From: a virus
Taxonomy: Duplodnaviria > Caudoviricetes
IMG/VR virus record: IMGVR_UViG_3300037454_000334
Span: 42,915-106,914 of that record
Direction: 5' to 3' (one strand)
Length of the DNA: 64,000 bases
Shown: positions 2,194-51,615 of the stretch, piece by piece
How positions within the stretch are numbered: the stretch's first letter is position 1
How the letters are laid out: every line of letters starts with the position of its first letter
Made by a program: the position numbers and the translations under genes
The notes under the pieces: generated by a model
The model's input: the letters and a program-made list of their open reading frames with translations, nothing else
Told to the model about the DNA's origin: nothing
Databases searched by the model: none

Positions 2194-2227
2194 GTCCCAA
2201 ATCATCCGTCCGACGATGATACCTTTG
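2194..2227 (+). promoter_or_regulatory. GTCCCA-N20-TACCTTTG promoter (only + strand copy of the phage motif)
   Basis: Same hexamer, spacing and Bacteroidetes -7 element as eight minus-strand copies. Confidence 0.65.
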
Positions 2228-2318
2228 CCTACGACTCGGGTATACCGGTGCAGACAAACATTGTCAAACCCTTTAAAACATGAGGAAAGGAACGAATATG
2301 ATTACATAACAAAATAAC

Positions 2319-2358
2319 AGGGGCTTGCCTTGGTGTCAGCAAGGCTCGCCCCCTTTCA
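2319..2358 (+). terminator. probable intrinsic terminator hairpin
   Basis: GGGGC-TT-GCCTTG...CAAGGC-TC-GCCCC followed by CTTTC; short U tail. Confidence 0.45.
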
Positions 2359-2497
2359 GTCTGCGGTCTCCTTCGCTGTTATGTCCATTGGACGGCGTGT
2401 TCACAAGGAGGCACGCAGACTTTTGGTGATCGTTAACATCAGGCTTTGCAGGTCGTTTGATGCAAACGGCTGCAAAGTTAACCAAAAGTATCAATCA

Positions 2498-2737
2498 ATG
2501 GACACAATCTTCGACCATATTGAACCTTTTGAGGATTTCTTAACACTCCTCGCACGCAATAAGGTCTCTGTCGGCGACGTGAAGTATTTCCCGGCCTACC
2601 GTGAATATCTTCACAGACGCTTCGTCGACAAGGACCTGTATTACAACTGCGTCGATGAGCTGTCGGAGAAATACGGCTTGAGACCTGGCACGTTCAGGAC
2701 CAAGATCAGGCTGTTCTCGGAAGAGTTCAAAAAATAA
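2498..2737 (+). CDS. small hypothetical protein, possibly DNA-binding
   Basis: Likely start MDTIFDH within ORF 2330..2737; preceded by an A-rich leader. Confidence 0.55.
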   Translation: MDTIFDHIEPFEDFLTLLARNKVSVGDVKYFPAYREYLHRRFVDKDLYYNCVDELSEKYGLRPGTFRTKIRLFSEEFKK

Positions 2738-2954
2738 GCCCGCTGCTTAACAAAGTTTAGCAGTCAGAGAGATTTCTGCACCGGTTTTACCCGCTTTTTT
2801 GTATAAAAAATTGCTAATTGCTTGCAACTTCCGTTTTATTTGCGTATATTTGCGTCGTGGTTCTCCCTCCAAGGAGGTATTCTCTTGCGATGGCTGGTAA
2901 TTTTCAGCCTGATTTTGGAAATAATCCTGAATTTAATACAAAAAACACCGAAAA

Positions 2955-4133
2955 ATGGAATCAAAAATCCGCTACCATTTGTGCTATAACTACGGTAAGA
3001 AACTCAATGCTGACGGACGCTCTCCGGTGGCCGTCGAGGCACGTCAGGGCACCAAGAGAATATACCTGTCGACACAGGTTATGCTCTTCCCATATCAATG
3101 GAACAACGGGAAGGTCGTCAACCACCCGAATGCGTCTAAGCTGACCGTCTGGCTCTTCAGACGGATGCACGAGATTGAGGAGATCGAGCTCGACTCACTG
3201 CTCAACGACAAACCGATGCTGCTCTCTCAGCTGAAGCAGGCCGTCAGGTCCGGTTCCAAGCCGTCGGCATCCATAGAGGAGTTCGTGAATGCCGTCATCG
3301 AGCCGAGCAACCGCAGCCGCCAGACCAAGGATGCCTATCACACGCTGGCCCGCGAGACCGAGAAATACGACAAGAAGACGAAGATGAACACCATCGACCA
3401 CGACTGGATTGAGCGGTGGCGTACCACGATGCTGCAGCAGGGATTGTCGGAGAACACCGTCAAAGGACGTCTGAAGATGCTACACTGCCTGACGCAGGAG
3501 GCCATCAAGCGCGATCTCCTGAGTCAGGACCCCTTCAAATGGATTGTCATTGGCAACATGACGCCGAAGCAGGAGTTCCTGACCAAGGGCGAGCTCCGCA
3601 AGATAGAGCGGGTCCGTCTGACGGGCAAGGAGGCGAAGGTGCGCGACCTGTTCCTGCTCGGGGTATATACAGGCCTCAGATGGAGCGACCTGACCACGCT
3701 TGAGGAAGCCGACATCAGCGGCGGCATCATTCGCAAACGGATGTATAAGACGAAGCGTGACGTCACCATCCCCATCAAGACGCTCTTCTGGGGCAAGGGC
3801 CAGGAAATCGTCGACCGCTACCAGCCGATCACCAGGCTCTGCAAATGCGTAAAATGCAACTCCACCGGCAACCGGATTATTCAGGCCATCGCTGAACGCA
3901 TCGGCATCAAACAGCGCGTCCACTTCCACCTCGCCCGCAAGACATGCTCAACAATGCTCAACGCCCTCGGCCTACCGACGAACGACATCACAAGCATCCT
4001 TGGCCACGCCAAAATTGAGACCACCCAAAAATACTATATCTTCGGTAAAGAAGAATCGCTCATCAAATCTGCAAAGAAACTATTCAAACAACAAAAAGAG
4101 TCGCCTATCGAGACTGATATCGAACAAGAGTAG
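2955..4133 (+). CDS. int: tyrosine recombinase/integrase (Bacteroidetes type: Arm-binding, SAM-like and catalytic domains)
   Basis: Catalytic motifs GLRWSD (R), HFHLARKT (HxxR), LGH...TTQKY (H, Y). Confidence 0.92.
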   Translation: MESKIRYHLCYNYGKKLNADGRSPVAVEARQGTKRIYLSTQVMLFPYQWNNGKVVNHPNASKLTVWLFRRMHEIEEIELDSLLNDKPMLLSQLKQAVRSGSKPSASIEEFVNAVIEPSNRSRQTKDAYHTLARETEKYDKKTKMNTIDHDWIERWRTTMLQQGLSENTVKGRLKMLHCLTQEAIKRDLLSQDPFKWIVIGNMTPKQEFLTKGELRKIERVRLTGKEAKVRDLFLLGVYTGLRWSDLTTLEEADISGGIIRKRMYKTKRDVTIPIKTLFWGKGQEIVDRYQPITRLCKCVKCNSTGNRIIQAIAERIGIKQRVHFHLARKTCSTMLNALGLPTNDITSILGHAKIETTQKYYIFGKEESLIKSAKKLFKQQKESPIETDIEQE

Positions 4134-4155
4134 CGTGATCCAACAGACCGGAAAT

Positions 4156-7622: not shown

Positions 7623-8801
7623 TTACTGAACCGCGCGGACCGAGAAGCCGTAGAACCGATTGCCGTTGTACTGCGGGTAGACACCACCAGAGCGGAAGAG
7701 CAAGTACCGACCATTCGTGGCGGAGTAGAGCGCAGCAGCCCAGTAGCTGCCGCGCGAGCCGCGGTTGTTCCAAGACGTGCCATCGCCGTCGCCTGAGCAC
7801 GGAAAAAAGAGTTTCTTTCCGTTAATCTTAGACTTCAAATAGATACCCACTATACTATTAACTGTCACGAGCTTGTTGGCAGTCGATGTCGGAATGGTTG
7901 TCGTACCGTCAGCCTGCAGATACTCTATGTTATTGAAAAGCTCAGCATATTCATCGGTGGTAGGCATGCGCCATGGCGCACCAAGATTGGCACGGGCGGC
8001 ATCCATAGACGGTGGAATATTACCAGTGAGAGCTGCTCCTGGTGTTGATGCGTAAGGGCCGTCGTTACTGCTTCCCCAGTCGTAGGTGAACGACGATGCG
8101 TTGGCAGGGTTATGACCTTCTGTGTTACCCCATGAGAAGAACGTACACTCATACTGGTACTCTGATGCGGCAAAACCATTTGCCTGTGTCACGTCGATAT
8201 TCTTCTTAGCCCACTTCAAGCCACTAGGCAGACCCATGTCAACCCAAAGCTCACTATCATCGTCACTCTGCTCCAGTCCGCCCATACAGATGACGTTATA
8301 GTTCGTACCGTCATAGACAAAGGTCACGGTGGTACGTGGACGAATAACACCTGGCTGTATTGCTGAACCATTGATAACAATCGGCTTTGCGCCTTGGGCA
8401 TTGATATTAAGCGTAGCTCCAGCTATGTTCACACCATTCTGGAAGAATACGCTAACGGGTACGTTCTTCAGTAGAATATAATGAGCCAGCGTAACTGTCT
8501 TCGCAGCGGTTGTAGCTGCCGTTGAACAAGAGCCGAGGCCACTTCCCGCATAAGCCATGTCGCTCGTGATGTTGTCAATCTTTGTTCCCTGTGCGGCAGT
8601 GGCGAAGTCGCTCGGCTTCTTTCCGCTGTCTGTAGGATTACCATTTCCATCCAATCCAGCGAAATTTCCACTGGTAGGATTGTTTACTTTGTCGGCCTTT
8701 CCTTGCGCGATAAGTGTGGTCTGCTGTGCCATCGTCTCCATGGCGGTGGCAATGCGCTGCTGCGTGGCGTCGAGATTAATTGGGGATGTAATTTCTGACA
8801 T
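7623..8801 (-). CDS. DGR target protein, probable receptor-binding fibre/adhesin with C-type-lectin-like C-terminus
   Basis: WVDMGLPSGLKWA...WRMPT...FFPCSG...YW...GFSVRAVQ lectin-fold signature; VR at C-terminus. Confidence 0.88.
   Translation of the reverse strand: MSEITSPINLDATQQRIATAMETMAQQTTLIAQGKADKVNNPTSGNFAGLDGNGNPTDSGKKPSDFATAAQGTKIDNITSDMAYAGSGLGSCSTAATTAAKTVTLAHYILLKNVPVSVFFQNGVNIAGATLNINAQGAKPIVINGSAIQPGVIRPRTTVTFVYDGTNYNVICMGGLEQSDDDSELWVDMGLPSGLKWAKKNIDVTQANGFAASEYQYECTFFSWGNTEGHNPANASSFTYDWGSSNDGPYASTPGAALTGNIPPSMDAARANLGAPWRMPTTDEYAELFNNIEYLQADGTTTIPTSTANKLVTVNSIVGIYLKSKINGKKLFFPCSGDGDGTSWNNRGSRGSYWAAALYSATNGRYLLFRSGGVYPQYNGNRFYGFSVRAVQ
7626..7807 (-). repeat. DGR variable repeat (VR)
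   Basis: 3' end of target gene; differs from TR almost only at TR adenines; GC-rich GTCCGCGCGG end. Confidence 0.95.
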
Positions 8802-8828: not shown

Positions 8829-9266
8829 CTATGTCGTAGTGTATGTCTGGCAGAGTTGTCCATTGACTACCGATAAACCATAGGCATCTACATAATCCTT
8901 CACCTTGGTTGGCACGGCTGGTGTCTTGATGTCCGATGTGGAGACTGCGCCTTCCAGTGTTGCGTTGTAGGCATTGGCCTCGGCTGTGGAGAGCGTGTCG
9001 CCGGCCTCCTTCTCTGCGCCGGTGATGGCCTCGTTATAGGCCGCAGCCTGCTCGGCGGTCAGCGGGTCGGTCGAGTTGAGTGCGCCCGTCAGCAGTGCGT
9101 TGTAGGCGTCGGCCTCCGACTGCGTGTAGTAGACGGCCTCCGACGTGTTGGGGATGCCGATCATCTCACCGGTGTATCGCTGCATGACCTTCTCGACATG
9201 CTTCATCATGCCACCAAGGGTGACGGCATCTGTCTTCTGTTCTGGTGTAATCGAGTTCTGTGACAT
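8829..9266 (-). CDS. hypothetical structural protein with internal A-x-A-YNA repeats
   Basis: 145-aa ORF; three EAxAYN-like repeats. Confidence 0.7.
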   Translation of the reverse strand: MSQNSITPEQKTDAVTLGGMMKHVEKVMQRYTGEMIGIPNTSEAVYYTQSEADAYNALLTGALNSTDPLTAEQAAAYNEAITGAEKEAGDTLSTAEANAYNATLEGAVSTSDIKTPAVPTKVKDYVDAYGLSVVNGQLCQTYTTT

Positions 9267-9291: not shown

Positions 9292-9325
9292 CAAAATTAA
9301 ATTCGTGCCGGATTCAAAATGGGAC
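9292..9325 (-). promoter_or_regulatory. GTCCCA-N20-TAATTTTG promoter
   Basis: Motif copy upstream of 8829-9266 and the DGR target. Confidence 0.75.
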
Positions 9326-9329
9326 AACC

Positions 9330-9488
9330 CTACTGCGACGGGGCGACGGTGAAGACAATCTCCTCGGCAGCGGCCTCACATTCGGCATCGCTGGCAACAG
9401 TCGTCGACGGGAACTCGGCCCGCATCTTCTGCCTGAACCGTTCAAGGCGGCGGACCGTTACATACTTCGTTGGGTTTGTTAGTGCCAT
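9330..9488 (-). CDS. 52-aa mini-protein (N-terminus like 9564 protein, C-terminus like 12045 protein)
   Basis: MALTNPTKYV... and ...EAAAEEIVFTVAP shared with neighbours. Confidence 0.65.
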   Translation of the reverse strand: MALTNPTKYVTVRRLERFRQKMRAEFPSTTVASDAECEAAAEEIVFTVAPSQ

Positions 9489-11219: not shown

Positions 11220-11975
11220 CTAATCTCCTTCTTCTTCCTGCATCTCGTCGGGGAAGCCGCCGGAGCCGCCTGTGGCGGGGTTGTCGAAGATCTCGTCGAT
11301 ATCCGAGTCGTCGGCCTCATTCTCGTCCTGGATGTCCTCTATCTCGTCGATCACGGTCGTATCGTCGCTGATGCCACGCATCACGTCCATCAGCTCGGGG
11401 ATGGTGTTCACCTGCTCGTTGGGTTCCTTGCCTTCCATCAGCTTGAGGAACTCATCCCCCTTCATCTTCATCTTTACCTTTCCCATATTCTCTACGATTT
11501 CTGAAATGTCATTGCTGAACTGGATGCGGTAGCCCTCGGCGGTCAGGACGTAGTTGCCGTCACAGTCTGCAAGGTAATCCTCACCGTCGACATATACCGA
11601 CCATACCTGCTCGTACTCGACAGGGCACTGCTCCGGATGGTGCTTCTGGCGACTGGTCTCCATGCAGCCCTCACGGCAGACGAACAGCTCCTGACGGTCT
11701 GTCCACACACGGCGCTGCTTGTCGTAGTCCTCGTCCTCGTAGGCCCCGATGAAGACGGCGTAGTGCGTGCCCTCCTTGACGTTCTCCATCGCGAAGTACC
11801 ACCGTGCCTCTGAGTCGTAGAAGCAGTCGTCCTTCTTGATGCGGGCCACGACGCGGCCATACTGGTTCTTCACCACTATCTCGAAGTAGTCGCGGGCGAG
11901 GTTGAAGTCGTCCTTTGTCGTTGTGACACGGAACTTCAGGTCGTTGCCGGGGTTGCAGGCGGGTATCGTTGTCAT
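11220..11975 (-). CDS. hypothetical structural protein
   Basis: 251 aa; acidic tail with DIDEIF. Confidence 0.7.
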   Translation of the reverse strand: MTTIPACNPGNDLKFRVTTTKDDFNLARDYFEIVVKNQYGRVVARIKKDDCFYDSEARWYFAMENVKEGTHYAVFIGAYEDEDYDKQRRVWTDRQELFVCREGCMETSRQKHHPEQCPVEYEQVWSVYVDGEDYLADCDGNYVLTAEGYRIQFSNDISEIVENMGKVKMKMKGDEFLKLMEGKEPNEQVNTIPELMDVMRGISDDTTVIDEIEDIQDENEADDSDIDEIFDNPATGGSGGFPDEMQEEEGD

Positions 11976-12006: not shown

Positions 12007-12040
12007 CAAAGTTATGATTAGGCCGATTTCAAAATGGGAC
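12007..12040 (-). promoter_or_regulatory. GTCCCA-N20-TAACTTTG promoter
   Basis: Motif copy upstream of 11220-11975. Confidence 0.75.
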
Positions 12041-12044
12041 AACC

Positions 12045-12944
12045 TTACGACAAGGGTGCGACGGTGAAGACAATCTCCTCGGCTGCCTGCTCACAAAGCT
12101 CGTAGGAGGCGAAGGTCAACTTATCCTGTTTTTCAGCAAAAGCGTTGTAAAGCCCTCCAGACTTCACAGCGTGATCTGAGTCCTCCGTCGGCTCATCATC
12201 GAAGGCGATATGCTCCAGCACCATCTGCGCCAGGGCTTCCTTCTCAGCCTCTGTCATGCTCTCCCAGTCGAGGTCGTCGCCCTTGGCATACGGCCCCTTA
12301 GTATATTGTTCGGTCGTGATGTCGTAGGTGTACCAGTAGTTCACGTCGCCGGGATGCGCTGCCGTGCCGTCGGCTACATAGGGTGGATGTCCGTTCCAGG
12401 CCTCGCAAAGTCCTGCGGCAGTGGTGGCACGAGATGTGGCGGCGGTAGCGTCGGCCTTCAGGTCAGCCCATTCCTTCTGAACACCACTTCCCTCGCTCTG
12501 CTCGGTAGGAGCCTCGCCGAACCAGTGGTTCCAGATGTAACGCACACCCGTCGGCAGGAGGTCGCTGAACCAGTGATCCCAAAGGTAGCGTACACCCGTC
12601 TGCAGAACATCGCTGAACCAGTCGCTGAAGGTCTTCTGCACACCGCTGTTCGCGTCTGTACCGAACCATGTGTCGAAGTCCGTGCGAACCTGCTGGCCGA
12701 CTGCGACAGCCGCACGGCCACCATCGGTCATCGCCTGCCAGTAGAGGGCGCCGTAGGTCACGTCATCCGGGGCGATGCCCGATATCTCGATGGCCCTACC
12801 CTGTGCGTCGAGAGCCTTACAAACCCATGAGTCATGGGCATAGAGTACAACATGGTTCAGCGTATAGGTCGCTGTCGGTGAATAAGGGCCGCGTGGCAGC
12901 ATACCGGCCGGGCCTACATCTGATACAAATACTTGAGTTGCCAT
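12045..12944 (-). CDS. fibre-associated structural protein
   Basis: PRGPYSPTATY..N-terminal motif, internal WF repeats, DDEPTEDSDHAVKSGG motif. Confidence 0.7.
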   Translation of the reverse strand: MATQVFVSDVGPAGMLPRGPYSPTATYTLNHVVLYAHDSWVCKALDAQGRAIEISGIAPDDVTYGALYWQAMTDGGRAAVAVGQQVRTDFDTWFGTDANSGVQKTFSDWFSDVLQTGVRYLWDHWFSDLLPTGVRYIWNHWFGEAPTEQSEGSGVQKEWADLKADATAATSRATTAAGLCEAWNGHPPYVADGTAAHPGDVNYWYTYDITTEQYTKGPYAKGDDLDWESMTEAEKEALAQMVLEHIAFDDEPTEDSDHAVKSGGLYNAFAEKQDKLTFASYELCEQAAEEIVFTVAPLS

Positions 12945-12993: not shown

Positions 12994-14907
<1,914 letters not shown>

Positions 14908-14932: not shown

Positions 14933-14966
14933 CAAATTTATATAAGGTTTGAAATAAAAGTGGGAC
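14933..14966 (-). promoter_or_regulatory. GTCCCA-N20-TAAATTTG promoter
   Basis: Motif copy upstream of the collagen gene. Confidence 0.75.
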
Positions 14967-22333: not shown

Positions 22334-22386
22334 AGGGGTTAGGGGTGAGGGGTTAGGGGTTAGAGTGAGGGGTCAGGGGTTAGAGT
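22334..22386 (+). repeat. G-rich heptamer tandem repeat (AGGGGTN)n
   Basis: Six GGGG tracts between two tail genes. Confidence 0.85.
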
Positions 22387-25023: not shown

Positions 25024-25057
25024 CAAAGTTAAATTCGGCTTAAACCAAAAGTGGGAC
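25024..25057 (-). promoter_or_regulatory. GTCCCA-N20-TAACTTTG promoter
   Basis: Motif copy upstream of the tail operon. Confidence 0.75.
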
Positions 25058-34560: not shown

Positions 34561-35844
34561 TTACTCATTTACCAGCATCGGCATGGCCAGCAGGGTGAGG
34601 GTCGACTTGACGTCCTCCTCCTTGATGAGTGCGGCATGTGACGGGTCGCCAAGCAACAGGTGGAGGTTCTCGGTGGCGACACAGCCGAGCAGACCGGCGA
34701 TGGTCGACATCTTGAAGCCGTAGATCTCACCCTCGGGCAACGTGGTATCTCCGGCATTCTGGATAGAAACGCGCTCGTTGCCGCTACGCGAGAAGTCGTA
34801 GTCGGCAGCGTCAATCCTGAGTTCACTGCCCTGACGCACCATCGTGATCATGCCCGATGACTCACTGGCGAAGAGACCGACACGCTTGATGGCACCAGCC
34901 AGCGCACCGACGTTCATCGTGACAATCTTCTCGTTCTTCTTGGGGATGACACTCTCGTAGTTGGGATAGTTACCCTCCATCAACCGGCTGACGAGCACCA
35001 CACCCTCGCGGCGCCACTCGATGCGCTGGGTGTCGGCGGTGACGTTCACCTGGTCGGCATCGGCGAAGATGTCGCAGATGGTAGGCAGCACGGCCTTCGG
35101 AACAATGAGCTTCGCAGAACCGTCGACGGGGAAGCTATGGTAGCCGAGCCATCCTGCACCCATATCGAACTGACGACGATAGAGCGTATGACCGTCGGAG
35201 GCGACGAGCACCATACGGTCGAGCCATACGTCGAGACACTCGGTATTCATCACCGGACGCAATTCGTCGTTGGCACAGCAGATGCGGGCCTGCTTGATAT
35301 AGGGCATCAGCTGAGGACCACGAACGGTGAAGCTGCAGACGGGCGTAGCGGCAGACATGCCCTGCTCGCCGGACTGTACGCCCTCCATCGTGACGACCTT
35401 CGCCATCGGCGGGAACTCAAGTGCCGCGTCGCAGGGGAAGGTGAACTCACCGATGCCGTAGTCGACACGCATCTGAATCTGCTCGCCACTCGTCTCGAAC
35501 GACACACGGAGCATGTAGCCACCACGGGGCACGGCACTGATAGCCTCCTTCAAACGACGGAAGGGGATGCAGACGGCAGTGAAGCGGTCCTTGCTGTCGT
35601 CCTCATGGATCTGCGCCCAGGGCTGCATGGTCGTCTCATCGTCGACAGTCACGGGGTGGATGCAGTCCATCTTCAGCCACGACTCGGTGTCACTGCCCAT
35701 GAGCCACACCATGTCGCGGTCGTTTTCGTAGCCAATCATGATGTCCTGGATGATCGGCAGTGCCGACTTGCTGGGGATGATGTTTGAAAACTGTCCGAGC
35801 GCCTTCTGGAAGGCCGCCGGCTCAAAAGTAAACATTGCTTTCAT
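34561..35844 (-). CDS. dnaN: DNA polymerase III beta clamp homolog
   Basis: PSKSALPII, ELRPVMN, VASDGHTL, GNYPNYESVIP, LLAMPM. Confidence 0.88.
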   Translation of the reverse strand: MKAMFTFEPAAFQKALGQFSNIIPSKSALPIIQDIMIGYENDRDMVWLMGSDTESWLKMDCIHPVTVDDETTMQPWAQIHEDDSKDRFTAVCIPFRRLKEAISAVPRGGYMLRVSFETSGEQIQMRVDYGIGEFTFPCDAALEFPPMAKVVTMEGVQSGEQGMSAATPVCSFTVRGPQLMPYIKQARICCANDELRPVMNTECLDVWLDRMVLVASDGHTLYRRQFDMGAGWLGYHSFPVDGSAKLIVPKAVLPTICDIFADADQVNVTADTQRIEWRREGVVLVSRLMEGNYPNYESVIPKKNEKIVTMNVGALAGAIKRVGLFASESSGMITMVRQGSELRIDAADYDFSRSGNERVSIQNAGDTTLPEGEIYGFKMSTIAGLLGCVATENLHLLLGDPSHAALIKEEDVKSTLTLLAMPMLVNE

Positions 35845-38778: not shown

Positions 38779-39966
38779 TTATATCCGGTTCTTCTTCTTG
38801 TTCAGCTCGATCTTCTTCTTGTCGTCGTCGCTGATATGCTCAAGAAACGAGTGCTCGAACTGCAGGCCGTAGGCAGGCTTCGACATACCCTTCTTGATGA
38901 AGCGCGTATGCTGGCGTCGCATGGACTCCCGAAGCCTCGGGTCGATGATGACCGGGAAATTGTACTGCACGAAGAAGCGCTCGACACTCTCGTTCTGCTT
39001 ACGCTTGAAACCCTGTGAACGGGCGATGCGCTGGTCCTGATAGAACCACTGGGTATACTCATAGCAGAAGCGGTCGGTCAGCATGGCGGCGAACTTATAC
39101 GCCGCGTCGTGCGACATCGAGTAGCAGGCGTTCGTGCGGTAGGTACGCTTGCCTATCCACACCTCACGCGGCATCTCGATGCAGATATAGTCGGAGGCGT
39201 TGTGGCGGTCCGACTTCTTCACACCCGTCAGCGTGGCGGTCTCGCTGCTGTCAGGCCACTTGGTCTGGTCACGGTTCATGATGAGCATACTCCCGTCGGG
39301 GCACTTGCCCTTCAGGATGTTGTTCCACGCATGCTGCGAGTAGCACATACAAGTCTGGTTCTGCTCGGGGATGTTACGCAGCGTGTTGATCATCATCTGG
39401 TATTCATGGTCGAAGTCGGCGAACTTCACCGGCTCCCACTCCGTCAGCTGATGCTCCTCATCCCTGCCGCGCAGCCAGCAGGCCACGTACCAGGGTATCT
39501 TCAGATAGATATTTGCCATAGGTTCTTGGTTTTCTTCTTCTCTTTTCTCTATATCGTTCAATGCCAGATGCCGCTCGTGACCCGTCAGGTTCAGGATATC
39601 GTCGACAGTGTAGCGCTCGATGCGGCTGACGTGGACATGCTGGCGAAGCCACCGCTCGATGACCAGCGCCAGCGAGTCGGCCGACGCCATCCTGGTGTCA
39701 TAACCCTTGAAGACACAGCCGATGCGGTCCCACACCACACCCAGCCTGTAACGCGGCGGGTGCTGTTCAGTCAGATAGAAGTCACTCATCACGCCTGCCT
39801 TCGACAGATAGGTGAACAGCTGCTCCAGGAGCTCCGGGTCAGCCCCTGCGAAGATGATGGTCATCTCACCGACATCCTCCTGCCAGTCCTCCGCGAAGGC
39901 GATGTTGCGTGCAGGGTGAGCCGGAAAGTCTCCCTTGTGTCTTGTGTGATGCAGATACGGCATCAA
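38779..39966 (-). CDS. hypothetical protein
   Basis: 395-aa ORF with phage codon bias. Confidence 0.7.
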   Translation of the reverse strand: MMPYLHHTRHKGDFPAHPARNIAFAEDWQEDVGEMTIIFAGADPELLEQLFTYLSKAGVMSDFYLTEQHPPRYRLGVVWDRIGCVFKGYDTRMASADSLALVIERWLRQHVHVSRIERYTVDDILNLTGHERHLALNDIEKREEENQEPMANIYLKIPWYVACWLRGRDEEHQLTEWEPVKFADFDHEYQMMINTLRNIPEQNQTCMCYSQHAWNNILKGKCPDGSMLIMNRDQTKWPDSSETATLTGVKKSDRHNASDYICIEMPREVWIGKRTYRTNACYSMSHDAAYKFAAMLTDRFCYEYTQWFYQDQRIARSQGFKRKQNESVERFFVQYNFPVIIDPRLRESMRRQHTRFIKKGMSKPAYGLQFEHSFLEHISDDDKKKIELNKKKNRI

Positions 39967-40694: not shown

Positions 40695-40807
40695 CTCACA
40701 TATAATTTGTAAATTTGGGGGCAAAAATAAGAAATTTATTTCTAATTTGTATCATTACGATAATATCATTTTGATAATTTATATGTTTTTAAGATTTACG
40801 TGTATTT

Positions 40808-41397: not shown

Positions 41398-42174
41398 TCA
41401 GTTAGCCGCCCGCTTCTCTTCGCGCTCGGCCAGCGACTGGTTCATGCGGTACTGCTGCGGGGTAATCTCCTCCATACCCTTCGCACGGCACGGATAGACA
41501 CAGCCGATGTAATAGGTCGTCGAGCGCAGGAAGAACGTCGGTGTCGATTCCGATAGCCTGCCCTCCGGCAGTTCGGCACCGAGGATACGGTACAGCTGCT
41601 GCACGGTCATCACCGGCAGCTTTAATCGCTTCTGCTCGGCGATGATGGCCCGTCGCTGCTTACGAGAGGCCTGTATCGGTCGTCCCTGCGGGTCGGTCTG
41701 CTCACCGACGGGACGGAACGAGATCTTCGGCATCACGACCTTCTTCACAGTCTGGCCATCCTCCGTCGGCACACTGATCTCCTGAATCTTGTCACGCAGA
41801 TAGATAGTGTCCCACGAGTCCTTCATCTGATACTCACGGCTGGGTATCTCCACCGACTCGCGCACCGCCTCACAGGAAGGGACATAATACTGGTCGCCGT
41901 CCAATACCATGAACTTGCGCCATAGTTTCTCGTCGACTTTCTCCCCTTTGGCAAACGCCACGCAGGCCACGCCTCCCGCAAAGAACTGCGGATTGGAATA
42001 GAAATACTTCGCGCCGAACTTCTTACAGTAGTCGTCGGCTGCCTCCTCGCATTTCTGACAAGCGTGCCAGAAGCGGGTAATCGCCTTCCCCGTGGCTGAT
42101 TCCGCTGCCACACGGTAATAATGGCGCACATCCTGACCCTGCACCTCGGCCTTCTTCGTTGTTGATGGTTTCAT
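41398..42174 (-). CDS. hypothetical protein
   Basis: 258-aa ORF. Confidence 0.7.
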   Translation of the reverse strand: MKPSTTKKAEVQGQDVRHYYRVAAESATGKAITRFWHACQKCEEAADDYCKKFGAKYFYSNPQFFAGGVACVAFAKGEKVDEKLWRKFMVLDGDQYYVPSCEAVRESVEIPSREYQMKDSWDTIYLRDKIQEISVPTEDGQTVKKVVMPKISFRPVGEQTDPQGRPIQASRKQRRAIIAEQKRLKLPVMTVQQLYRILGAELPEGRLSESTPTFFLRSTTYYIGCVYPCRAKGMEEITPQQYRMNQSLAEREEKRAAN

Positions 42175-42209: not shown

Positions 42210-42896
42210 TTATGTTCTTATGTTCTTATGTCTAAAATATAAGAACGTGCCTGCTGCGATGGCGATGCCAACAAGGATGCCACGGAGCCACGCCCACGTC
42301 TTCTGCCACCAGGTCGGACCACCGTCCATGTTCGTCTGCTTCGTCTGGTCGAACTGCTGCGATAGTGAATCCCACAGGTGCGCCTCCATCTGCGTCAATC
42401 GGTCACTCCAGGTCGAATCCATCTGTGAGAGCGTCTTGTGCAGCTCGTTCTGCCAGCGCTCCTCGGTCTGCTGCCAGCGCTGCTGCTCCTGCTTCGATAT
42501 CTCACGCTGAGTCGTGCGCTGTTCCTGGCGCATCTCACGACCAAGACTATCCACCCACGTCGTAATCGTCTCGGTGGTTGTCTCCTTCTGATGCTCCTGA
42601 GCTGCAAACTCCTGCATCGCCGCCCACACCGAGGCAGTCACGATGGAGTCGAGATCCACACTGGTCTGCTGATGGTGCCCGTCGTGCTTGGCCTCCGACG
42701 CCAGCGTGTCGGCATTCACCACATGCGTCTGATGCTCGTGGGTCTCCTTGTGCGACGCACAGCTACACGTTGATACCAGGAAGATCATGACAAACACCCA
42801 GAATCCGACGATTCCGATAAACGTGCCGACGGTCGGCCACTCTATCTGACAGTTCGACCATCTGTCCTTGAAGGTTTTCAATAATGACTGTTTCAT
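42210..42896 (-). CDS. membrane protein, spanin candidate
   Basis: Hydrophobic N-segment ending S-C-A, coiled coil, C-terminal TM helix. Confidence 0.55.
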   Translation of the reverse strand: MKQSLLKTFKDRWSNCQIEWPTVGTFIGIVGFWVFVMIFLVSTCSCASHKETHEHQTHVVNADTLASEAKHDGHHQQTSVDLDSIVTASVWAAMQEFAAQEHQKETTTETITTWVDSLGREMRQEQRTTQREISKQEQQRWQQTEERWQNELHKTLSQMDSTWSDRLTQMEAHLWDSLSQQFDQTKQTNMDGGPTWWQKTWAWLRGILVGIAIAAGTFLYFRHKNIRT

Positions 42897-42923: not shown

Positions 42924-42957
42924 CAAAGTTAAATCTTAACGAAATAAAAAATGGGAC
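42924..42957 (-). promoter_or_regulatory. GTCCCA-N20-TAACTTTG promoter
   Basis: Motif copy upstream of the spanin candidate. Confidence 0.75.
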
Positions 42958-43011
42958 GATTTCCGAACCTGTCAGAAATCATCCCATCCGATAAGGGGTA
43001 AATCTATGTAA

Positions 43012-44508
43012 CTATTCAATAATGTCTTTCACAATCGCCGGAGCCAGCTTCGGTAAATCAAGCAATTGGCGTGCCTTCTCATAGACGGGTTCCATAGTCT
43101 TCCCCGACCAAAACCGGGCGTCCTCCTTGTTGATAGTTACATAAAATTGCCCGTTGCGCAGACCATTGTATCTCGCCCGCTGTAACAGTGACCTGACAGG
43201 CCTAGTGGTGTCCGATACCAGCTGCTGCCATTTGTCGGATGCCTCACCGGGGATATAGTCGGGCTCGTCCCTCACAAACAAGTCCTCCGACTGCTGCTCA
43301 GGCTGCCGGATGGCACCACGCTTACGCTCTACATCCCTGATATAATTCTCCATTATCGTCGTGGCATAAGCTACCACATTGTCAGGCTGCTTACGCTCCA
43401 CAGCGTCACGGATATCATGGAAGCAATAACTCATGAATTCGTCCAGCTCCTCGTCCTGAATCCTCGCAACCAGTTCACGCAGGTCGTAAGCCCTGAAATC
43501 CCTGCACCAGTCGCACATCGTCCTCACCCACAGGTGGCGCTGCCTACTGATACGCTTCTCCGCATCATGCTCAAGAGCCAGCCGTTTCTTGATGATGGTA
43601 AACTGAATATGACTCGGATTGCCGCGCTTCCTGCCATTCTCATAGAGCGGCTCATACTCAAAGGTGATGTCAATCTGGTCATTGTCCGAAAACGTGTCAA
43701 GCTCCAGTTTCGCAGGGTCAAGGATCTGCGACTGCACCTTGTTCCATTTACGGAAGGGGTTCTCCCACTTCGTCAGCGCCTCCAGCCGCTCGTTGGCCTC
43801 CTTCTGCGTAATCTCCTTGTTCTTCAGCTGCTCGTTGATCTTGTTCAGACGGTCGGCACGGGCAGTCTCGTCGTCGATACCCAGGAACTTACAGAAGTCC
43901 TTATAGTCCACCTTCTTGTGGCCCGCATCTTTGAACGATGCGAGGAAGGTGTAGATACGCGGTGTGCGCACCTTCTTCGATATCTGCGTGATTCTCGACA
44001 GATATTCCGTGTAACCCTTGTCCATCGACAGGAAGTCACGGATATTCTCATTGAGCATCACCACCTTCACCTTACCCGTCCGTCGGCTGTTGCCCATCGG
44101 CAGTTCCAGTCGGGCGAACAGCGGTGCCACCACGTAGTTCATCTTGTCCTTGTAGGCCTTCGGAAAACCGATGCGCTTGTTGGCCAGGTCCCTCAGCGCC
44201 TCTTCCAGATAGTCGTAGTGCTCAGGGATGATACCGAACTTCTTCGGCGATATCTCGATGGTCGTCGAGTCGCCCATCATCTCCGCATCAGAGAACAGAC
44301 TGGGAAACTGCTTACCGTCCTCCTTATCGTTGATTGAGCGCAGTATCTTGTCCTGCATCTCGTCGAGTACACCAGCCAGGATACGCTGCTGCAGTAACGA
44401 GAAGTCACCGCTGATCTGTGAATAGACCACCGGGTTGTAAAGCCACTCCTTCGGCAACAGACCAGTCTCCTGCTGCTCCTGTTCCTCGTTCTTCTTTTTC
44501 TTCGCCAT
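43012..44508 (-). CDS. plasmid-type replication initiator (Rep_3/RepB-like)
   Basis: DFSLLQQRIL, YTEY......SKKVRTPRIY, ILDPAKLEL, ITFEYE...IQFTI motifs; flanked by iterons. Confidence 0.8.
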   Translation of the reverse strand: MAKKKKNEEQEQQETGLLPKEWLYNPVVYSQISGDFSLLQQRILAGVLDEMQDKILRSINDKEDGKQFPSLFSDAEMMGDSTTIEISPKKFGIIPEHYDYLEEALRDLANKRIGFPKAYKDKMNYVVAPLFARLELPMGNSRRTGKVKVVMLNENIRDFLSMDKGYTEYLSRITQISKKVRTPRIYTFLASFKDAGHKKVDYKDFCKFLGIDDETARADRLNKINEQLKNKEITQKEANERLEALTKWENPFRKWNKVQSQILDPAKLELDTFSDNDQIDITFEYEPLYENGRKRGNPSHIQFTIIKKRLALEHDAEKRISRQRHLWVRTMCDWCRDFRAYDLRELVARIQDEELDEFMSYCFHDIRDAVERKQPDNVVAYATTIMENYIRDVERKRGAIRQPEQQSEDLFVRDEPDYIPGEASDKWQQLVSDTTRPVRSLLQRARYNGLRNGQFYVTINKEDARFWSGKTMEPVYEKARQLLDLPKLAPAIVKDIIE

Positions 44509-44525: not shown

Positions 44526-44976
44526 GTTACATACTTTTACCCCTCACCTCAGACGTGATAGTTACACGTTTTTACCCCTTGGTGCTGGAGTCTGACAGTT
44601 ACATGTTTTTACCCCTCATACGAAAATATCCATAGATTGTATCCGACAGTTACCGGGTTTCGCCCATATAGTTACGGTTACAGCCCGAACAGTTACATGA
44701 AATTGCCCCTTCCCATAACGTGAAAGCCCTCTGATGATGCGGGTTTCAGCCCGATTGGCCACACCCGTTAATTCTCTTAATAAAGAAAAGCTCTCTAAAA
44801 GACGATAGACTACCTTATATAAATTAAAGGAGTCATGTCGTCTAAGGGGTAAATCTATGTAACTAACGGGTTTCATCGTCGCACTTATGAGGGGTAAATC
44901 CATGTAACAATACCTTTTCGTAGGTTAACCAGTTTATAGTTATGGCGACCTACGCTAAGGGGTAAATCTCTGTAAC
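44526..44976. repeat. 19-bp iteron array (GTTACAnnnnTTTACCCCT), putative plasmid origin
   Basis: Forward copies at 44526, 44561, 44598, 44692; inverted copies at 44845, 44890, 44958; extra copy at 42994. Confidence 0.85.
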
Positions 44977-45287
44977 TATTTCTTGATTTCAATCTTCCCC
45001 TCCTGCACATCAAGCCAGAGTCCGATGGCCTGCACCACCATATCCTTCATCGTCTGTCGGCTTGTGGCACTGATCACCTTCAGCCTCACGTGCTGCGATG
45101 ACGGAATCGGGATATTGATGTTCTGCGTCGGCTCCTGATACACCGACTGCTGTTCTGCATGCGCACCTGACCCCTTTGTGTCCGCAATTTCCTTAAAGCC
45201 CTGTTCAATCTTCTGCTCCGTGTCCTTGACCAGCGTCTCCTGCAACTCTGCCAGGTTCCACTTATTGCCTTTCTTCTTCTCTGCCAT
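44976..45287 (-). CDS. ParB/ParG-like ribbon-helix-helix partition protein
   Basis: INIPIPSSQHVRLKVISA...TMKDMVVQAI RHH pattern directly downstream of parA. Confidence 0.65.
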   Translation of the reverse strand: MAEKKKGNKWNLAELQETLVKDTEQKIEQGFKEIADTKGSGAHAEQQSVYQEPTQNINIPIPSSQHVRLKVISATSRQTMKDMVVQAIGLWLDVQEGKIEIKK

Positions 45288-45338: not shown

Positions 45339-46142
45339 TCAGAATAGTTCCTTGCAAAGCGCTTCATAGGCATTGGCCGCTGGCGACCATTGCTTATACT
45401 CATAGATATCCTGCTTCTTTGTCTGCGCTTCATTCACCTTCACGCTACGAGGGATCATCGTTTCACAGACATTATCCCCATACGCCTGGTGCAGATACTC
45501 CACAAACGACTTCACGATGTTCGGACGAGAGTCCACCATCACAGGCAGCAGACCTCGCAGTTCGAGCTGCGGGTTTAGTTCTCGCTTAACCCGTTCCATT
45601 TCCACAATAATCGGTGCCAGTCCTGATACGCTCAGTCCCTCCATCTGGACAGGAATCAACAATCCACTCGCCACCGCCATCGCATTATAGGTACACATCG
45701 AGAGGGCAGGCGGACAGTCTATCAACACATAATCGAACCAATCGGGAATTGTAGTGATACCTTCGCCCGAGCAATCCTCCACCTCACCAAGCACTAATTT
45801 CCGAAGCACCATATAAGGCTGCATCTGTGCCATCAGTTTCGGCTCGATCTTCTGTAAGGCAGGTGACGACGGCACGAAATAGATACCACGGTCACTCTTA
45901 TAGATTGGCAGCCTACCCTGCTCCGATGCCAGTGCATCCGTCACCGTCGGACTGTCACCATACGACGCACCAAAGCCCATCAGCTTCGACAGGTCGCCTT
46001 GTGGGTCTATATCCATCACGAGTATGCGCCAGTCCTTGCGGTAGCGCTTCATCGCTGCAGCCAGGCTCTGTACGGTGGTGGTCTTCCCTACTCCACCTTT
46101 GTTGTTGACAACGGCCAACACTTCTTTCAGTCTTGTTTCCAT
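45339..46142 (-). CDS. parA: ParA family partition ATPase
   Basis: NNKGGVGKTTT, DIDPQG, DYVLIDCPP. Confidence 0.93.
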   Translation of the reverse strand: METRLKEVLAVVNNKGGVGKTTTVQSLAAAMKRYRKDWRILVMDIDPQGDLSKLMGFGASYGDSPTVTDALASEQGRLPIYKSDRGIYFVPSSPALQKIEPKLMAQMQPYMVLRKLVLGEVEDCSGEGITTIPDWFDYVLIDCPPALSMCTYNAMAVASGLLIPVQMEGLSVSGLAPIIVEMERVKRELNPQLELRGLLPVMVDSRPNIVKSFVEYLHQAYGDNVCETMIPRSVKVNEAQTKKQDIYEYKQWSPAANAYEALCKELF

Positions 46143-47345: not shown

Positions 47346-47584
47346 ATTCCTTATTAATTATATTATTTATGGTGCAAAGATACAATATATATCTTGTATT
47401 ACCAAATATTTATGAAGAAAAATACAATATATAGTTTAAATTTAACTATGATTTAACAAATACAAACTATATATTTACAGAAATTAAGAAAAACAATATA
47501 TATATTTAATTATTGCCAAAAGATTTGGAACTTTTAGATATTATGCTTATCTTTGCAGCCCATTTCTTACAAAAAATATATAGT

Positions 47585-47833
47585 ATGAACATCAAGGCAG
47601 TAATCAGCAGGAAAGGATTCACGATGCAGCAGGTGGCCGATAAACTCGGTATCTCGCAGCAGGCTGTGAGTCAGGCGGTCAATGGCAATCCATCACTCTC
47701 CCGTCTGAAAGATATTGCCGACGCTATTGGTGTGACGGTCTCGGAACTTGTAGCCGACGACGAACAGTCCACGCACACGATACGATGTCCACACTGCGGC
47801 CATGAGATTGAAATAACCATTGATTTGAAATAA
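47585..47833 (+). CDS. XRE-family HTH regulator with CPHCG tail
   Basis: TMQQVADKLGISQQAVSQAVNGNPSL; likely start MNIKAV. Confidence 0.88.
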   Translation: MNIKAVISRKGFTMQQVADKLGISQQAVSQAVNGNPSLSRLKDIADAIGVTVSELVADDEQSTHTIRCPHCGHEIEITIDLK

Positions 47834-48153: not shown

Positions 48154-48762
48154 TTAGAGTTCACGATTCAGAATCCGGCCGATGCAAGCCTGGTCGTAGT
48201 GGTCGATGACCGCCTTCATCTTCAGTTTCGCTATCACCGGGTCGATCGCCTGCAGCAGAACATCCTTGTCACTGCCCAGCCAAGCCGCGTAAAGCGATAA
48301 CGAGAAATCAGCCTGCGACAACATCGCACCCTGAATGACGAGCGACAACGACACAAAAGTGCCTGACCCCTTTGTGTCCTTTGTGTCGCAGCCGATGATA
48401 GCCAGCTGCGCGTCGAGCACCAGCGGATCCACTGCATAGTGAACACGGTCGAGATACCCATTGAGTTCACTCTCCACCAACTCCTTCTGACTGCGCTGCG
48501 TCAGCAGCAGCAGCGCCTGCGTCCATCCACGACGGAAGTAGTAGGCCAGTGTGCGCAACATCATCACGTCCACCTCTGGTACCGTCAGCACAATCACATG
48601 CTCATCACCAGCCAGACGACTCACCGCGCCAAGCAGCTTCTCCAGAGTCACATCACCGTTCGTCTGAAAGAAGCAGAAGCCACCCTTCGCCTCCTTCATC
48701 ACCTTCGGCAGGTCTTTATCAACACAACATGGAGCTATATACATTGAATTTTCAATTTTCAA
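48154..48762 (-). CDS. hypothetical protein
   Basis: 202-aa ORF downstream of the amidase. Confidence 0.65.
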   Translation of the reverse strand: MKIENSMYIAPCCVDKDLPKVMKEAKGGFCFFQTNGDVTLEKLLGAVSRLAGDEHVIVLTVPEVDVMMLRTLAYYFRRGWTQALLLLTQRSQKELVESELNGYLDRVHYAVDPLVLDAQLAIIGCDTKDTKGSGTFVSLSLVIQGAMLSQADFSLSLYAAWLGSDKDVLLQAIDPVIAKLKMKAVIDHYDQACIGRILNREL

Positions 48763-48764
48763 TA

Positions 48765-49508
48765 TTAAACGTTTCTATACGCGAACTTGGCATCGAATGA
48801 GGGACATTCTTTTACCCACTCATCAGGCGAGATAACCCCGTCGTGGTTCTTGTCGGGAGAAAAGTCACGGTGCCCCTGAATCTTCGCCTTCGGATAGAGC
48901 TTCCGCAAATCCATCAGCAGCGACAGCAGACTGGCCTTCTGAGCATCCGTGCGAGTATCTTTCGCTTTCAGCATGGAATAAGGCACACTAGGCCGGCTTT
49001 CCAGACCACCGACATACGAGATGCCGATACTGTTCGAGTTATACCCACTGACATGCGCACCGCTGATGTCCACGTCGCGCCCGATATTCACCGTGCCATC
49101 ACGATAGATGATATAGTGATAACCACAATCGCTCCAACCCTGCGCCTTGTGCTGCCTGCGGATGTCCTCCACCGTCATGTCGCGCCCCTCCTGAGTAGCC
49201 GTACAATGGATGACGATATAGTCAATCCTGCGCTTGCTTCGCTTCAGGCGGATGGTCTTCCCGCCGTAAGAACTGACCACCGAGTCCAACGACACAGAAG
49301 TGCCTGACCCCTTTGTGTCAATTCCCATCGCCAGCAGCGTCTTCGGCCCCGCGATACCATCAGCCGTCAGGCCATGCTCCTTTTGGTAGTTCTTCACCGC
49401 CTCAGTCGTCAGCTTACCCCATATACCATCAGGATAGCACCCGACCGCCTTCTGAATCAGGGTCACTACCGCCCCCTTCGATCCTTCCTTATAAGTTATC
49501 ACTCCCAT
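48765..49508 (-). CDS. endolysin: N-acetylmuramoyl-L-alanine amidase with N-terminal peptidoglycan-binding domain
   Basis: DGIWG..T..AVK.YQ..HGL.ADGIAGPKT; IHCTAT, GYHY, GHRD, KECPSF. Confidence 0.93.
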   Translation of the reverse strand: MGVITYKEGSKGAVVTLIQKAVGCYPDGIWGKLTTEAVKNYQKEHGLTADGIAGPKTLLAMGIDTKGSGTSVSLDSVVSSYGGKTIRLKRSKRRIDYIVIHCTATQEGRDMTVEDIRRQHKAQGWSDCGYHYIIYRDGTVNIGRDVDISGAHVSGYNSNSIGISYVGGLESRPSVPYSMLKAKDTRTDAQKASLLSLLMDLRKLYPKAKIQGHRDFSPDKNHDGVISPDEWVKECPSFDAKFAYRNV

Positions 49509-49567
49509 AGTCTTGTTGGTTTAAATATATATTTGAAATCCGTGAAATCCGTGTCATCCGTGATCCC

Positions 49568-51133
49568 TTAACTCTTCGCCGCTCTGCAAATCGCTGACAT
49601 CGCCGAGCCGACCAGACGACCCTGCAACACATCGCTCGTCCAGTGGTAGCGCGACACGCTTCTGTTTAGCGAGAAACTGTTCGCCGCTTTCAGGATCTTA
49701 TCAGACCTGTACGGGTACGCCTCCATCAGCATCATTGCTGCGCACGTGATACCGCCGCTATGGCCACTCGGGTAAGAGTTCGCAAAGAGATTCCGCTTCT
49801 GCATCTCCTCATACTGTTCGGGCGACGAACACTCCTGCGGCTTCACCCAAACACCATTCTCGTCGTAGTAACCCGTCGGGCACCCGTCGCCGTCCTCAAT
49901 CACGAAGTTCGCCAAGGCATTCTCGCGGTCGTCCGTCTGCGAATGTTTCGTAGCCTCCTGCGTCCACGAGCACCCAGGGCGCAACCTTCCATACTCGATA
50001 GGCCCATACGCCGAGTTTGCATGCTGCAGGATACCACGCGCATTACTGCCAGCCGTCTTCGCCCATGCCACCGACTGAGCCAGCTCACACTCAGGGTCAA
50101 TCCTCATATCAATCGTCTCCTGACCGAACACCGCATGGAAATCATACAACCCACCGACATCGCGACGGTCATCGCCATACAGATGGTGCTCATCCCACTC
50201 CTTGTCAGCCACTGCCTGCACCGCCAGCTGCCCCGGCAGATTCGAGCGCGACACAATCACCTCGTGGATCTTCATGTCCATCGCCAGACAACCGTTCGAT
50301 ACCTTCTCGTCGGTGAACGTCCCTCGCAGCTGACTGCGGTCCTGATAGCCCGGCGCATACGGCCCAGGAGCCGACACCATAAACCGTCTGAAGTCGATAT
50401 AGAACCCATCGTCAGCCACATTGTAACGACTCTCCTGGTCAACGATGTCCTCCAGCGTCCGGTCGTACCCCTTGCCGCCAACCTCGCTGCGCATCCTCTC
50501 GATGTCAGGCTTAGCCACGCCGTGCATCACCGCCAGCAGCGAGCCGCCAATCAGTCGCGCCACCGTCGGGTCACTCCTAAACTCATAGCCGAAGATATCA
50601 CTCTCAGCCGAATAGCCGCCCGCCGAGTAGCCGATAGGCATCAGCTCGTTACGCTTCAGCGAACAAAGCTCGCTCAGGTGCAGCGCACACACCCAGCCCA
50701 CCAACGTACTGAACGCAGCGTCCTCGTCGCGCCGACCCTGATAGATGTCCGTAATCGTCGGGAACAGCTCAGGCCGGTAGAGTAGGGGAAGACCCCAACC
50801 CGACTCGCCCTTGTAGAACTGCCGCCAAGCCTCAGTCGCCACCTTCACCAGATAGTCGAACGTCATGCTCTGCTCCGATACGTTGATCACCGGATTAAAC
50901 CTCGTCAGCACCTCGTCGACCACCTCCGACGCCTTCGTCTCAGCAGGGTCAACCTCCGGCTCAGTCTTGGGCTCAGTCACGGGGTCTGGCATTTCTGCTG
51001 CCTCCTCTTTGGGCTCAGCTTTGGGGTCTGACCCCTTTGTGCCCTTCTTCACCTTCGTCCAAACGAACGCCCCGATTCCGACCACCCCCGCGATGGCGAT
51101 CATCGTCAATACAATTTCCAAATCATTCATCAT
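49568..51133 (-). CDS. membrane-anchored PAP2/class A acid phosphatase-like protein
   Basis: RLRP, SYPSGHS, RSVSRYHWTSDV catalytic motifs; N-terminal TM. Confidence 0.8.
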   Translation of the reverse strand: MMNDLEIVLTMIAIAGVVGIGAFVWTKVKKGTKGSDPKAEPKEEAAEMPDPVTEPKTEPEVDPAETKASEVVDEVLTRFNPVINVSEQSMTFDYLVKVATEAWRQFYKGESGWGLPLLYRPELFPTITDIYQGRRDEDAAFSTLVGWVCALHLSELCSLKRNELMPIGYSAGGYSAESDIFGYEFRSDPTVARLIGGSLLAVMHGVAKPDIERMRSEVGGKGYDRTLEDIVDQESRYNVADDGFYIDFRRFMVSAPGPYAPGYQDRSQLRGTFTDEKVSNGCLAMDMKIHEVIVSRSNLPGQLAVQAVADKEWDEHHLYGDDRRDVGGLYDFHAVFGQETIDMRIDPECELAQSVAWAKTAGSNARGILQHANSAYGPIEYGRLRPGCSWTQEATKHSQTDDRENALANFVIEDGDGCPTGYYDENGVWVKPQECSSPEQYEEMQKRNLFANSYPSGHSGGITCAAMMLMEAYPYRSDKILKAANSFSLNRSVSRYHWTSDVLQGRLVGSAMSAICRAAKS

Positions 51134-51147
51134 GTTATTTACGATTT

Positions 51148-51471
51148 TTAATGAGTTACGATTCTTACGCCGTCAATCTCCATAATCAGATAATCCCTCA
51201 CTCTGCGGATCTGTTTCGACTCGACATATTGGATCATCCTTTGCTTGATTTCCGGATAGACCTTCAGGCAGGTGCAGAAGCCCTCCTCCATCTGGCCCTT
51301 ACCCGTAATGTATTTGATATGGAATGGCACACGGCTGACACCCTTCCCGTCCTTCCCGCCAGGTGGATTATAACCACGAGTCGTGACACCAGTCTTCGGA
51401 TCTCGCCACTCGAACTTCTCCGTGAGGTCTCTCACCTCCACCCAGCTTCTTGTTGGTTTCATCTTTGGCAT
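51148..51471 (-). CDS. hypothetical protein
   Basis: Likely start MPKMKP. Confidence 0.6.
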   Translation of the reverse strand: MPKMKPTRSWVEVRDLTEKFEWRDPKTGVTTRGYNPPGGKDGKGVSRVPFHIKYITGKGQMEEGFCTCLKVYPEIKQRMIQYVESKQIRRVRDYLIMEIDGVRIVTH

Positions 51472-51495
51472 AACTTGATTTTGTTTTCTTGATGA

Positions 51496-51565
51496 CAAGG
51501 ACGGTGCAAGTCGAATGCAGACGAAAGCTCGCTTTCAGTATGCTGAGACGCAGCCCGTACTCGCG
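51496..51565. repeat. about 70-bp dispersed repeat, copy 1
   Basis: Aligns with 52702-52769. Confidence 0.75.
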
Positions 51566-51581
51566 CTAAATCTATTTAGCG

Positions 51582-51615
51582 CAAAGATACGGATTTATGT
51601 TTTTCATTTTGGGAC
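51582..51615 (-). promoter_or_regulatory. GTCCCA-N20-TATCTTTG promoter
   Basis: Motif copy upstream of the phosphatase/endolysin operon. Confidence 0.75.

Follow-up and report, generated by a model that had tools for sequence, protein, structure and literature searches.

A putative phage-specific promoter class in Prevotella phages, pairing a TGTCC box with the Bacteroidota -7 element

The stretch of DNA analysed here (the window, 64 kb) is the right-hand part of a 106,914-bp phage contig from the IMG/VR database (record IMGVR_UViG_3300037454_000334, here G000; Duplodnaviria; Caudoviricetes), whose completeness was estimated by CheckV at about 65%. It contains nine copies of a composite, putative promoter element, GTCCCA-N19/20-TAnnTTTG, whose downstream half is the -7 element of Bacteroidota promoters and whose upstream half appears to belong to the phage. 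The nine sites and the genes which they precede are the following.

2194-2227, plus strand: GTCCCA-N20-TACCTTTG, the sole plus-strand copy, 103 nucleotides (nt) 5' of open reading frame (ORF) 2330-2737
9292-9325, minus strand: GTCCCA-N20-TAATTTTG, 26 nt 5' of a gene for 145 amino acids (aa), 8829-9266
12007-12040, minus strand: GTCCCA-N20-TAACTTTG, 32 nt 5' of the gene for an acidic 251-aa protein, 11220-11975
14933-14966, minus strand: GTCCCA-N20-TAAATTTG, 26 nt 5' of the tail-fibre gene 12994-14907
25024-25057, minus strand: GTCCCA-N20-TAACTTTG, 23 nt 5' of the core 873-aa gene 22380-25001
25352-25384, minus strand: GTCCCA-N19-TATCTTTG, 5' of an ORF (58 aa, 25117-25293) whose product has two hydrophobic segments
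27531-27564, minus strand: GTCCCA-N20-TAGTTTTG, 5' of the gene for a basic 74-aa Zn-ribbon-like protein, 27220-27444
42924-42957, minus strand: GTCCCA-N20-TAACTTTG, 5' of the gene for a protein with two transmembrane segments, 42210-42893, followed by a 258-aa core gene, 41398-42174
51582-51615, minus strand: GTCCCA-N20-TATCTTTG, after a terminator and 5' of a lysis-type operon

These are exactly the sites, at the same coordinates, that a first-pass annotation of the sequence had listed: the plus strand holds one and the minus strand eight, and the spacer is 20 nt long in all but one of the nine (25352-25384, with 19). The scan against shuffled sequences which that annotation had proposed gave 9 exact matches to GTCCCA-N{19,20}-TAnnTTTG in the window versus 0.01 expected (100 dinucleotide shuffles, maximum 1). 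GTCCCA by itself is not enriched in the window (22 occurrences, 28 expected) and TAnnTTTG by itself is enriched about two-fold (50 versus 24); the enrichment is that of the coupling of GTCCCA with the -7 box, not of either element alone. The whole contig holds 11 sites, with two extra ones to the left of the window.

35340-35373 of the contig, minus strand: extra site, N20
39703-39734 of the contig, minus strand: extra site, N18

All 11 are located in the non-coding share of the contig, which amounts to about 9.5%, and all are co-oriented with the next gene, with 23-103 nt between the end of the -7 box and the start codon. Intergenic TAnnTTTG boxes number 28 in the contig, and GTCCCA is present at the same 11; when one mismatch was allowed in the -7 box, no convincing further intergenic site was found in the contig. 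Sites 9292 and 12007 are not fully independent, as they have in common about 40 nt of a duplicated upstream gene end plus part of the spacer. The paralogous gene ends behind these two promoters (9326-9375 and 12041-12090, minus strand) have about 30 nt in common; gene end and promoter were duplicated together.

The element is not peculiar to one phage. With the 873-aa protein as query, 80 related IMG/VR loci were recovered (42-59% identity, contigs mostly of 50-130 kb), and the family is assigned to Prevotella and Prevotellaceae. Eight whole genomes were compared: G000, the phage contig of Prevotella sp. MGM1, G015, G008, G005, G010, G020 and G007; MGM1 is an isolate that carries its 90-kb phage relative as a contig of its own (G001:C204). 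Across the family the element takes the form wTGTC[C/A]-N22-TAnnTTTG, and a weighted matrix reads w-T-G-T-C-C-(C), with three more positions of weaker preference. At 101 of the 763 unique TAnnTTTG sites in the 80 loci, GTCC starts exactly 26 nt 5' of the TA; no other offset occurs more than 9 times. Seven of the eight whole genomes have 7-9 sites at a spacer of 22 and up to 12 at 21-22 (at most 0.23 in shuffles). The eighth, G007, has no GTCC site and possesses eight TTGTCAC[G/A] boxes at identical spacing, a form that is also found in its close relatives in two metagenome-assembled genomes (MAGs; G026:C68 and G028:C182), with eight or nine sites per genome. This GTCAC lineage is a natural specificity variant. 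The flavour of the box is concerted within each lineage: GTCCCA followed by an A/T run occurs in 23 of the 24 sites of G000 and G015, TTGTCCC in MGM1 and G008, ATGTCC[G/T] in G005 and G010, and GTCCCTACC in G025. Sequence comparison accordingly makes GTCCCA the flavour of the present phage and its closest relative, with TGTCC (GTCAC in one lineage) as the conserved core.

The position of the sites is kept among relatives, while the spacers between the two elements are unalignable. Sites recur 5' of the head module, of a 492-aa gene and of several giant structural genes, and a site precedes the orthologue of the membrane-protein gene 42210-42893 in the relatives compared. The exception is G015: its site is found 790 nt upstream, and the four nearest genes do not include the orthologue.

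The consensus of Bacteroidota promoters consists of a -33 TTTG and a -7 TAnnTTTG, the latter extending from T-12 to G-5 (PMC6847099). The -7 element is exact in 11 of the 11 sites of the contig. At the GTCC sites no -33 TTTG is present 19-20 nt 5' of the TA, this position reading CA plus N; among intergenic -7 boxes without GTC[C/A], taken from the eight phage genomes, TTTG has a distinct peak at that distance. GTCC occupies about -38 to -35 and GTCCCA -38 to -33, shifted upstream by a few bases relative to the canonical -33; from the end of GTCC to the TA there are 22 (+/-1) nt, versus TTTG-N19/20 in canonical promoters of the same phages. The box as a whole, at -40 to -33, is asymmetric and without dyad. 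Since its end occupies the -33 position, the box takes the place of the -33 element, with the -7 element retained, and the exact -7 boxes and displaced TTTG thus bear out the earlier proposal that the host -7 element is kept with GTCCCA in place of its usual partner.

Host chromosomes were examined with a reversed-pattern count in the same genome as control (isolate Prevotella sp. MGM1 plus five MAGs). Of the 12 occurrences of GTCC-N22-TAnnTTTG in MGM1, seven share a single strand of the 90-kb phage contig and five are in the other approximately 2.9 Mb; the reversed-pattern control gave four. In the five MAGs a looser GTC[A/C] pattern found 7-10 sites on the phage contig, and the other contigs equalled the control. 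A scan of IMG/VR with the pattern returned, among the matches listed (80 stretches), 43 that belong to this family; the other 37 bore single hits that look like chance. The promoter class looks phage-specific, confined to this family as far as sampled and not belonging to host chromosomes; the equal frequency in host promoters that would have spoken against a phage element was not seen in any of the six genomes, as the host remainder matched its control.

The genes behind the sites belong to several functional groups, beside which two further features of the window have to be named.

2955-4133, plus strand: tyrosine integrase (Phage_integrase match), preceded by ORF 2330-2737
7623-8801, minus strand: target gene of a diversity-generating retroelement (DGR), after the 145-aa gene 8829-9266

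Around the plus-strand site (window 2100-3000) only short internal inverted repeats were found at default settings. The aligned template and variable repeats (TR/VR) of the DGR differ at 17 positions, all but one of them TR adenines, and gene 12994-14907 matches a PHROG tail-fibre family (4.9e-54). The 873-aa gene is followed in the same block by 337-aa and 2099-aa genes, and a strong terminator hairpin lies immediately 5' of the site at 25024. In the lysis-type operon, a 116-aa core protein (51148-51498) is followed by a PAP2 protein (49568-51133), an amidase (48765-49508) and a 202-aa core protein (48154-48762). To the left of the window, the GTCC class serves the head module (590-, 418- and 179-aa genes) and the 492-aa gene. 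Several sites lie directly 3' of hairpins resembling intrinsic terminators, forming terminator-promoter modules. At 42949-42989 (minus strand), after the Rep gene, the overlap is literal: the GTCCCA box of site 42924-42957 falls within the 3' arm of a terminator-like hairpin.

The operon behind site 27531 is of a different kind. The Zn-ribbon-like gene (27220-27444) is followed by ORF 26714-27190 (minus strand), which matches the Thoeris anti-defence Tad2-like domain (PF11195, 3.9e-21), by small genes and by an SSB-like gene (25387-25959, minus strand). The product of the last is a 190-aa core protein whose linker is rich in Gln, Pro and Gly and whose C-terminal tail, DDLPF, resembles the one in bacterial single-stranded DNA-binding protein (SSB); it is probably a phage SSB. 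In the MGM1 phage the SSB-like gene adjoins the phage sliding clamp. The window encodes a DnaN-type sliding clamp as well (34561-35844, minus strand), which is core in 8/8 genomes; a DNA polymerase was not recognised. The leader that separates the 74-aa gene from its promoter at 27531 contains three tandem copies of ATAAGTATCAATT (27459-27513, minus strand; period about 21-22 nt), perhaps an operator or an element of iteron type.

The first-pass annotation had spoken of a late regulon. Head, tail, fibre, DGR-target and lysis operons do belong to the class. So do the Zn-ribbon/Tad2-like/SSB-like operon, the membrane-protein operon beside Rep, and the plus-strand site by the integrase-adjacent ORF. 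Because the class also serves the SSB/Tad2-like and Rep-side membrane-protein operons, a delayed regulon, middle plus late, would fit better than a late one.

Promoters without the box serve another set of genes. Two of them were named in the first-pass annotation as lacking GTCCCA, which is correct.

47375-47382, minus strand: comparator -7 box of a canonical TTTG-N20-TATCTTTG promoter, 5' of an early/maintenance operon
62272-62279, minus strand: comparator -7 box, promoter of an 8.5-kb early operon, without GTCC box

Canonical or other -7 promoters serve the 8.5-kb early operon, ParA, a ribbon-helix-helix (RHH) protein, Rep3, two HTH_3/Zn-ribbon genes, the left-arm helicase and accessory arrays. 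The two HTH_3 genes (47513-47833 and 63128-63496, plus strand) are paralogues with a C-terminal CPHCG zinc-ribbon-like tail. Both are divergent from early operons, 47513-47833 facing the 47375 promoter, and their family is core in 8/8 genomes; their products are likely immunity or maintenance repressors. Plasmid-type maintenance genes on the minus strand comprise a Rep3 initiator (43012-44508), the RHH protein (44976-45287) and ParA (45339-46142). Such genes, together with the separate 90-kb contig in the isolate Prevotella sp. MGM1, suggest a phage-plasmid lifestyle for the family.

A protein that could read the box was sought by homology. Sigma70_r2 (PF04542) gave no match even at E<=1 in six-frame translations of seven phage genomes (G000, the MGM1 phage contig and five complete relatives). 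Sigma70_r4 (PF04545, PF08281) gave generic Cro/CI-type helix-turn-helix (HTH) hits only, below cut-off. Among five phage genomes no homologues of Mor/C or Ogr/Delta were found, nor any credible match to the MotA C-terminal domain (PF09158, MotCF), a search by homology only, in which AsiA was not included. With a recognisable phage sigma excluded at Pfam sensitivity, of the "phage activator or modified sigma" put forward in the first-pass annotation the second half can only mean an adaptor on the host sigma. PHROGs and Pfam annotation left most genes, all regulator candidates included, without family, and small orphan proteins are plentiful in these phages; the 873-aa core protein had no tblastn match among GenBank phages. 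About 22 core clusters include G000 in the eight-genome comparison.

One orphan core protein deserves attention.

38779-39966, minus strand: candidate reader; the conserved 246-aa part corresponds to 38779-39519

Its family comprises 111 clusters at 50% identity and is located 625-770 nt upstream of the head-module GTCC promoter in 76 of 79 related loci. In G008 and G010 the homologue ends a primase-ThyX operon without GTCC promoters, and in the window the gene lies downstream of a non-GTCC -7 box (40722-40729), from which it appears to be transcribed. The model of 38779-39519 (mean predicted local distance difference test, pLDDT, 79.7) consists of an alpha/beta domain of orphan type, followed by C-terminal helices in which conserved arginines are numerous. 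It had no match in PDB or BFVD, and its C-terminal helices are weakly winged-helix-like (Z <=4.9). Distant homologues show weak HTH matches in extra fused segments outside the shared domain, a hint of a DNA-related role. The 76 boxes linked to the family are too uniform to reveal covariation between protein and box flavour, and a PDB sequence search with profiles of two core proteins was empty or spurious. Of four activator candidates named at first pass (38779, 40137, 40808 and 36298), positional support exists for 38779 and for none of the others. Its position makes it a reasonable first candidate, although we consider it rather doubtful that this protein is the reader. The 116-aa basic protein of the lysis-type operon, present in 16/16 complete relatives searched, was modelled with confidence as a small SH3/Sm-like barrel. 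Its best Foldseek E was 0.08, and its resemblance to WYL domains (VIA Z of 6.3-6.7, a score in the noise range of that tool) is not counted here as evidence.

On balance we favour, as probable, hybrid promoters in which the host primary sigma reads the -7 element and a phage-encoded adaptor reads the TGTCC box. The reader protein would be made from canonical early promoters and would take over or replace the contact of sigma region 4 with the -33 element, while TAnnTTTG (-12 to -5) would still be read by host RNA polymerase with its primary sigma; the outcome would be that the delayed regulon, that is head, tail, fibres, DGR target, lysis and some middle functions, is turned on. Such an adaptor agrees with a box that is short and asymmetric, rigidly spaced, concerted in flavour within each lineage and absent from host chromosomes, none of which proves it. 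Activity of the promoters, the host primary sigma at the -7 box, a phage-encoded reader and the identity of that reader are all points that we infer. Several things weigh against this reading. The class includes non-late genes, for which a simple late switch is too narrow, and both promoter activity and timing are deduced. Because G000 is incomplete, a regulator, even a sigma, could sit in the missing part; the five complete relatives are likewise without sigma in the Sigma70_r2 search. The two folded candidates (the 116-aa protein and 38779) are without significant structural match, and lineage-specific box flavours could track different host species. A more specific version, a sigma-appropriation-like system in Bacteroidota, is held tentatively, at somewhat less than even chances: an adaptor, possibly 38779-39966, would retarget polymerase from the -33 TTTG to TGTCC at about -38, it would control nearly the whole post-early programme of these abundant Prevotella phage-plasmids of ~100 kb, and at least one lineage would have swapped GTCCC for GTCAC.

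The same architecture might be read by a phage sigma too divergent for Pfam, with GTCC as its -35 and a TAnnTTTG-like -10. Rigid spacing and a short asymmetric box are typical of direct recognition by sigma, and many core proteins are orphans without a family match. We nevertheless regard this as unlikely. Sigma70_r2 gave no match at E<=1 in the seven genomes, and Sigma70_r4 none beyond generic HTH hits below cut-off; as a phage sigma for the unusual -7 of the host should keep a detectable region 2, the host sigma with an adaptor is preferred. Also quite unlikely, in our judgement, is that the box is an operator through which a maintenance repressor silences, in the plasmid-prophage state, promoters made intrinsically active by their strong -7 element. 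A repressor would suit a family that looks temperate or plasmid-like (Rep3, ParA, RHH, integrase, CI-like HTH proteins), with core HTH_3/Zn-ribbon proteins in 8/8 genomes. Operators, however, are usually palindromic and flexible in position, whereas this box is short, has no dyad and keeps one fixed offset in more than 100 diverged sites; the missing -33 predicts promoters that are weak when unaided, and the HTH_3 genes are divergent from early operons rather than paired with GTCC sites.

That the box is read by a host factor, be it an alternative sigma or an activator that infection or stress induces, seems improbable. The hosts possess many sigmas of extracytoplasmic function (ECF) type, MGM1 giving 15 Sigma70_r2 hits, and box flavours differ between phage lineages that possibly live on different hosts. 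ECF promoters, on the other hand, are not known to use TAnnTTTG, and the six host genomes have no chromosomal excess over the reversed-pattern control, hence no host regulon of such architecture. We give least credence, and very little, to the idea that the motif has no role in transcription and arose incidentally, through duplication of intergenic cassettes or as what is left of terminators. The duplicated flanks of 9292 and 12007 and the 42957 box within a terminator stem would agree with it, but the other sites have unrelated spacers and flanks, the motif is kept where orthologous intergenic regions have fully diverged, and it stands at a constant distance from a genuine promoter element. 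The hybrid promoter, read jointly by host sigma and phage adaptor, remains the explanation we prefer.

The primary sigma of Bacteroidota is atypical and, to our knowledge, temporal control of transcription is essentially unexplored in those phages of Bacteroidota that rely on the polymerase of their host. A full-text literature search found no prior description of a phage-specific promoter class in such phages. The present data provide a clean, conserved promoter class, the GTCAC variant, the cultured carrier Prevotella sp. MGM1 and a short list of candidates, by which the reader becomes experimentally tractable. The element also offers a practical way to call delayed and late operons in gut and rumen phages of a group that is very abundant and has hardly been annotated, and orthogonal, phage-inducible promoter parts for Prevotella and Bacteroides genetics could result.

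The principle behind these promoters is a familiar one, and the novelty lies in the element, the type of sigma, the phylum of the host and the family of the phage. With canonical Bacteroidota promoters they share an identical -7 element and A-rich leaders without Shine-Dalgarno sequence. They differ from them in the absence of a -33 TTTG at N19-20 and in the TGTCC box about 3-6 nt further upstream, and host chromosomes make no use of the composite motif found in these phages. In temperate phages the gene for a late activator, such as Mu Mor/C, P2 Ogr/P4 Delta and the RinA/ArpU type, often lies just upstream of the packaging or head operon, a position similar to that of 38779-39966 before the head module in 76/79 loci. 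These activators bind dyad sites upstream of the -35, or are sigma-like. The present box, unlike those sites, is asymmetric and overlaps the -35-equivalent position, and no Mor or Ogr/Delta homologue accompanies it. In mycobacterial PafBC "sigma adaptation" an activator acts between sigma region 4 and a -26 element. The concept is alike, an activator giving recognition upstream of a normal -10 at a fixed position, although PafBC is a host DNA-damage regulator and not a phage factor. The sole link to it in the present phages is the non-significant fold similarity between the 116-aa core protein and WYL domains, to which we attach no weight.

The middle promoters of phage T4 combine a MotA box with the sigma-70 -10 element and are used through MotA/AsiA sigma appropriation. 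The differences lie in the Bacteroidota primary sigma with its -33/-7 architecture, in the temperate or plasmid-like nature of the phages, in the position of TGTCC at about -38 versus the MotA box at -30, and in the MotA C-terminal domain, which was not detected here (AsiA not having been searched for). In both cases, a host element of the -10 type is kept, an element of the -35 type is replaced by an asymmetric phage box at a near-fixed distance, and the genes so switched on would be post-early ones, with early genes left on promoters of fully host type.

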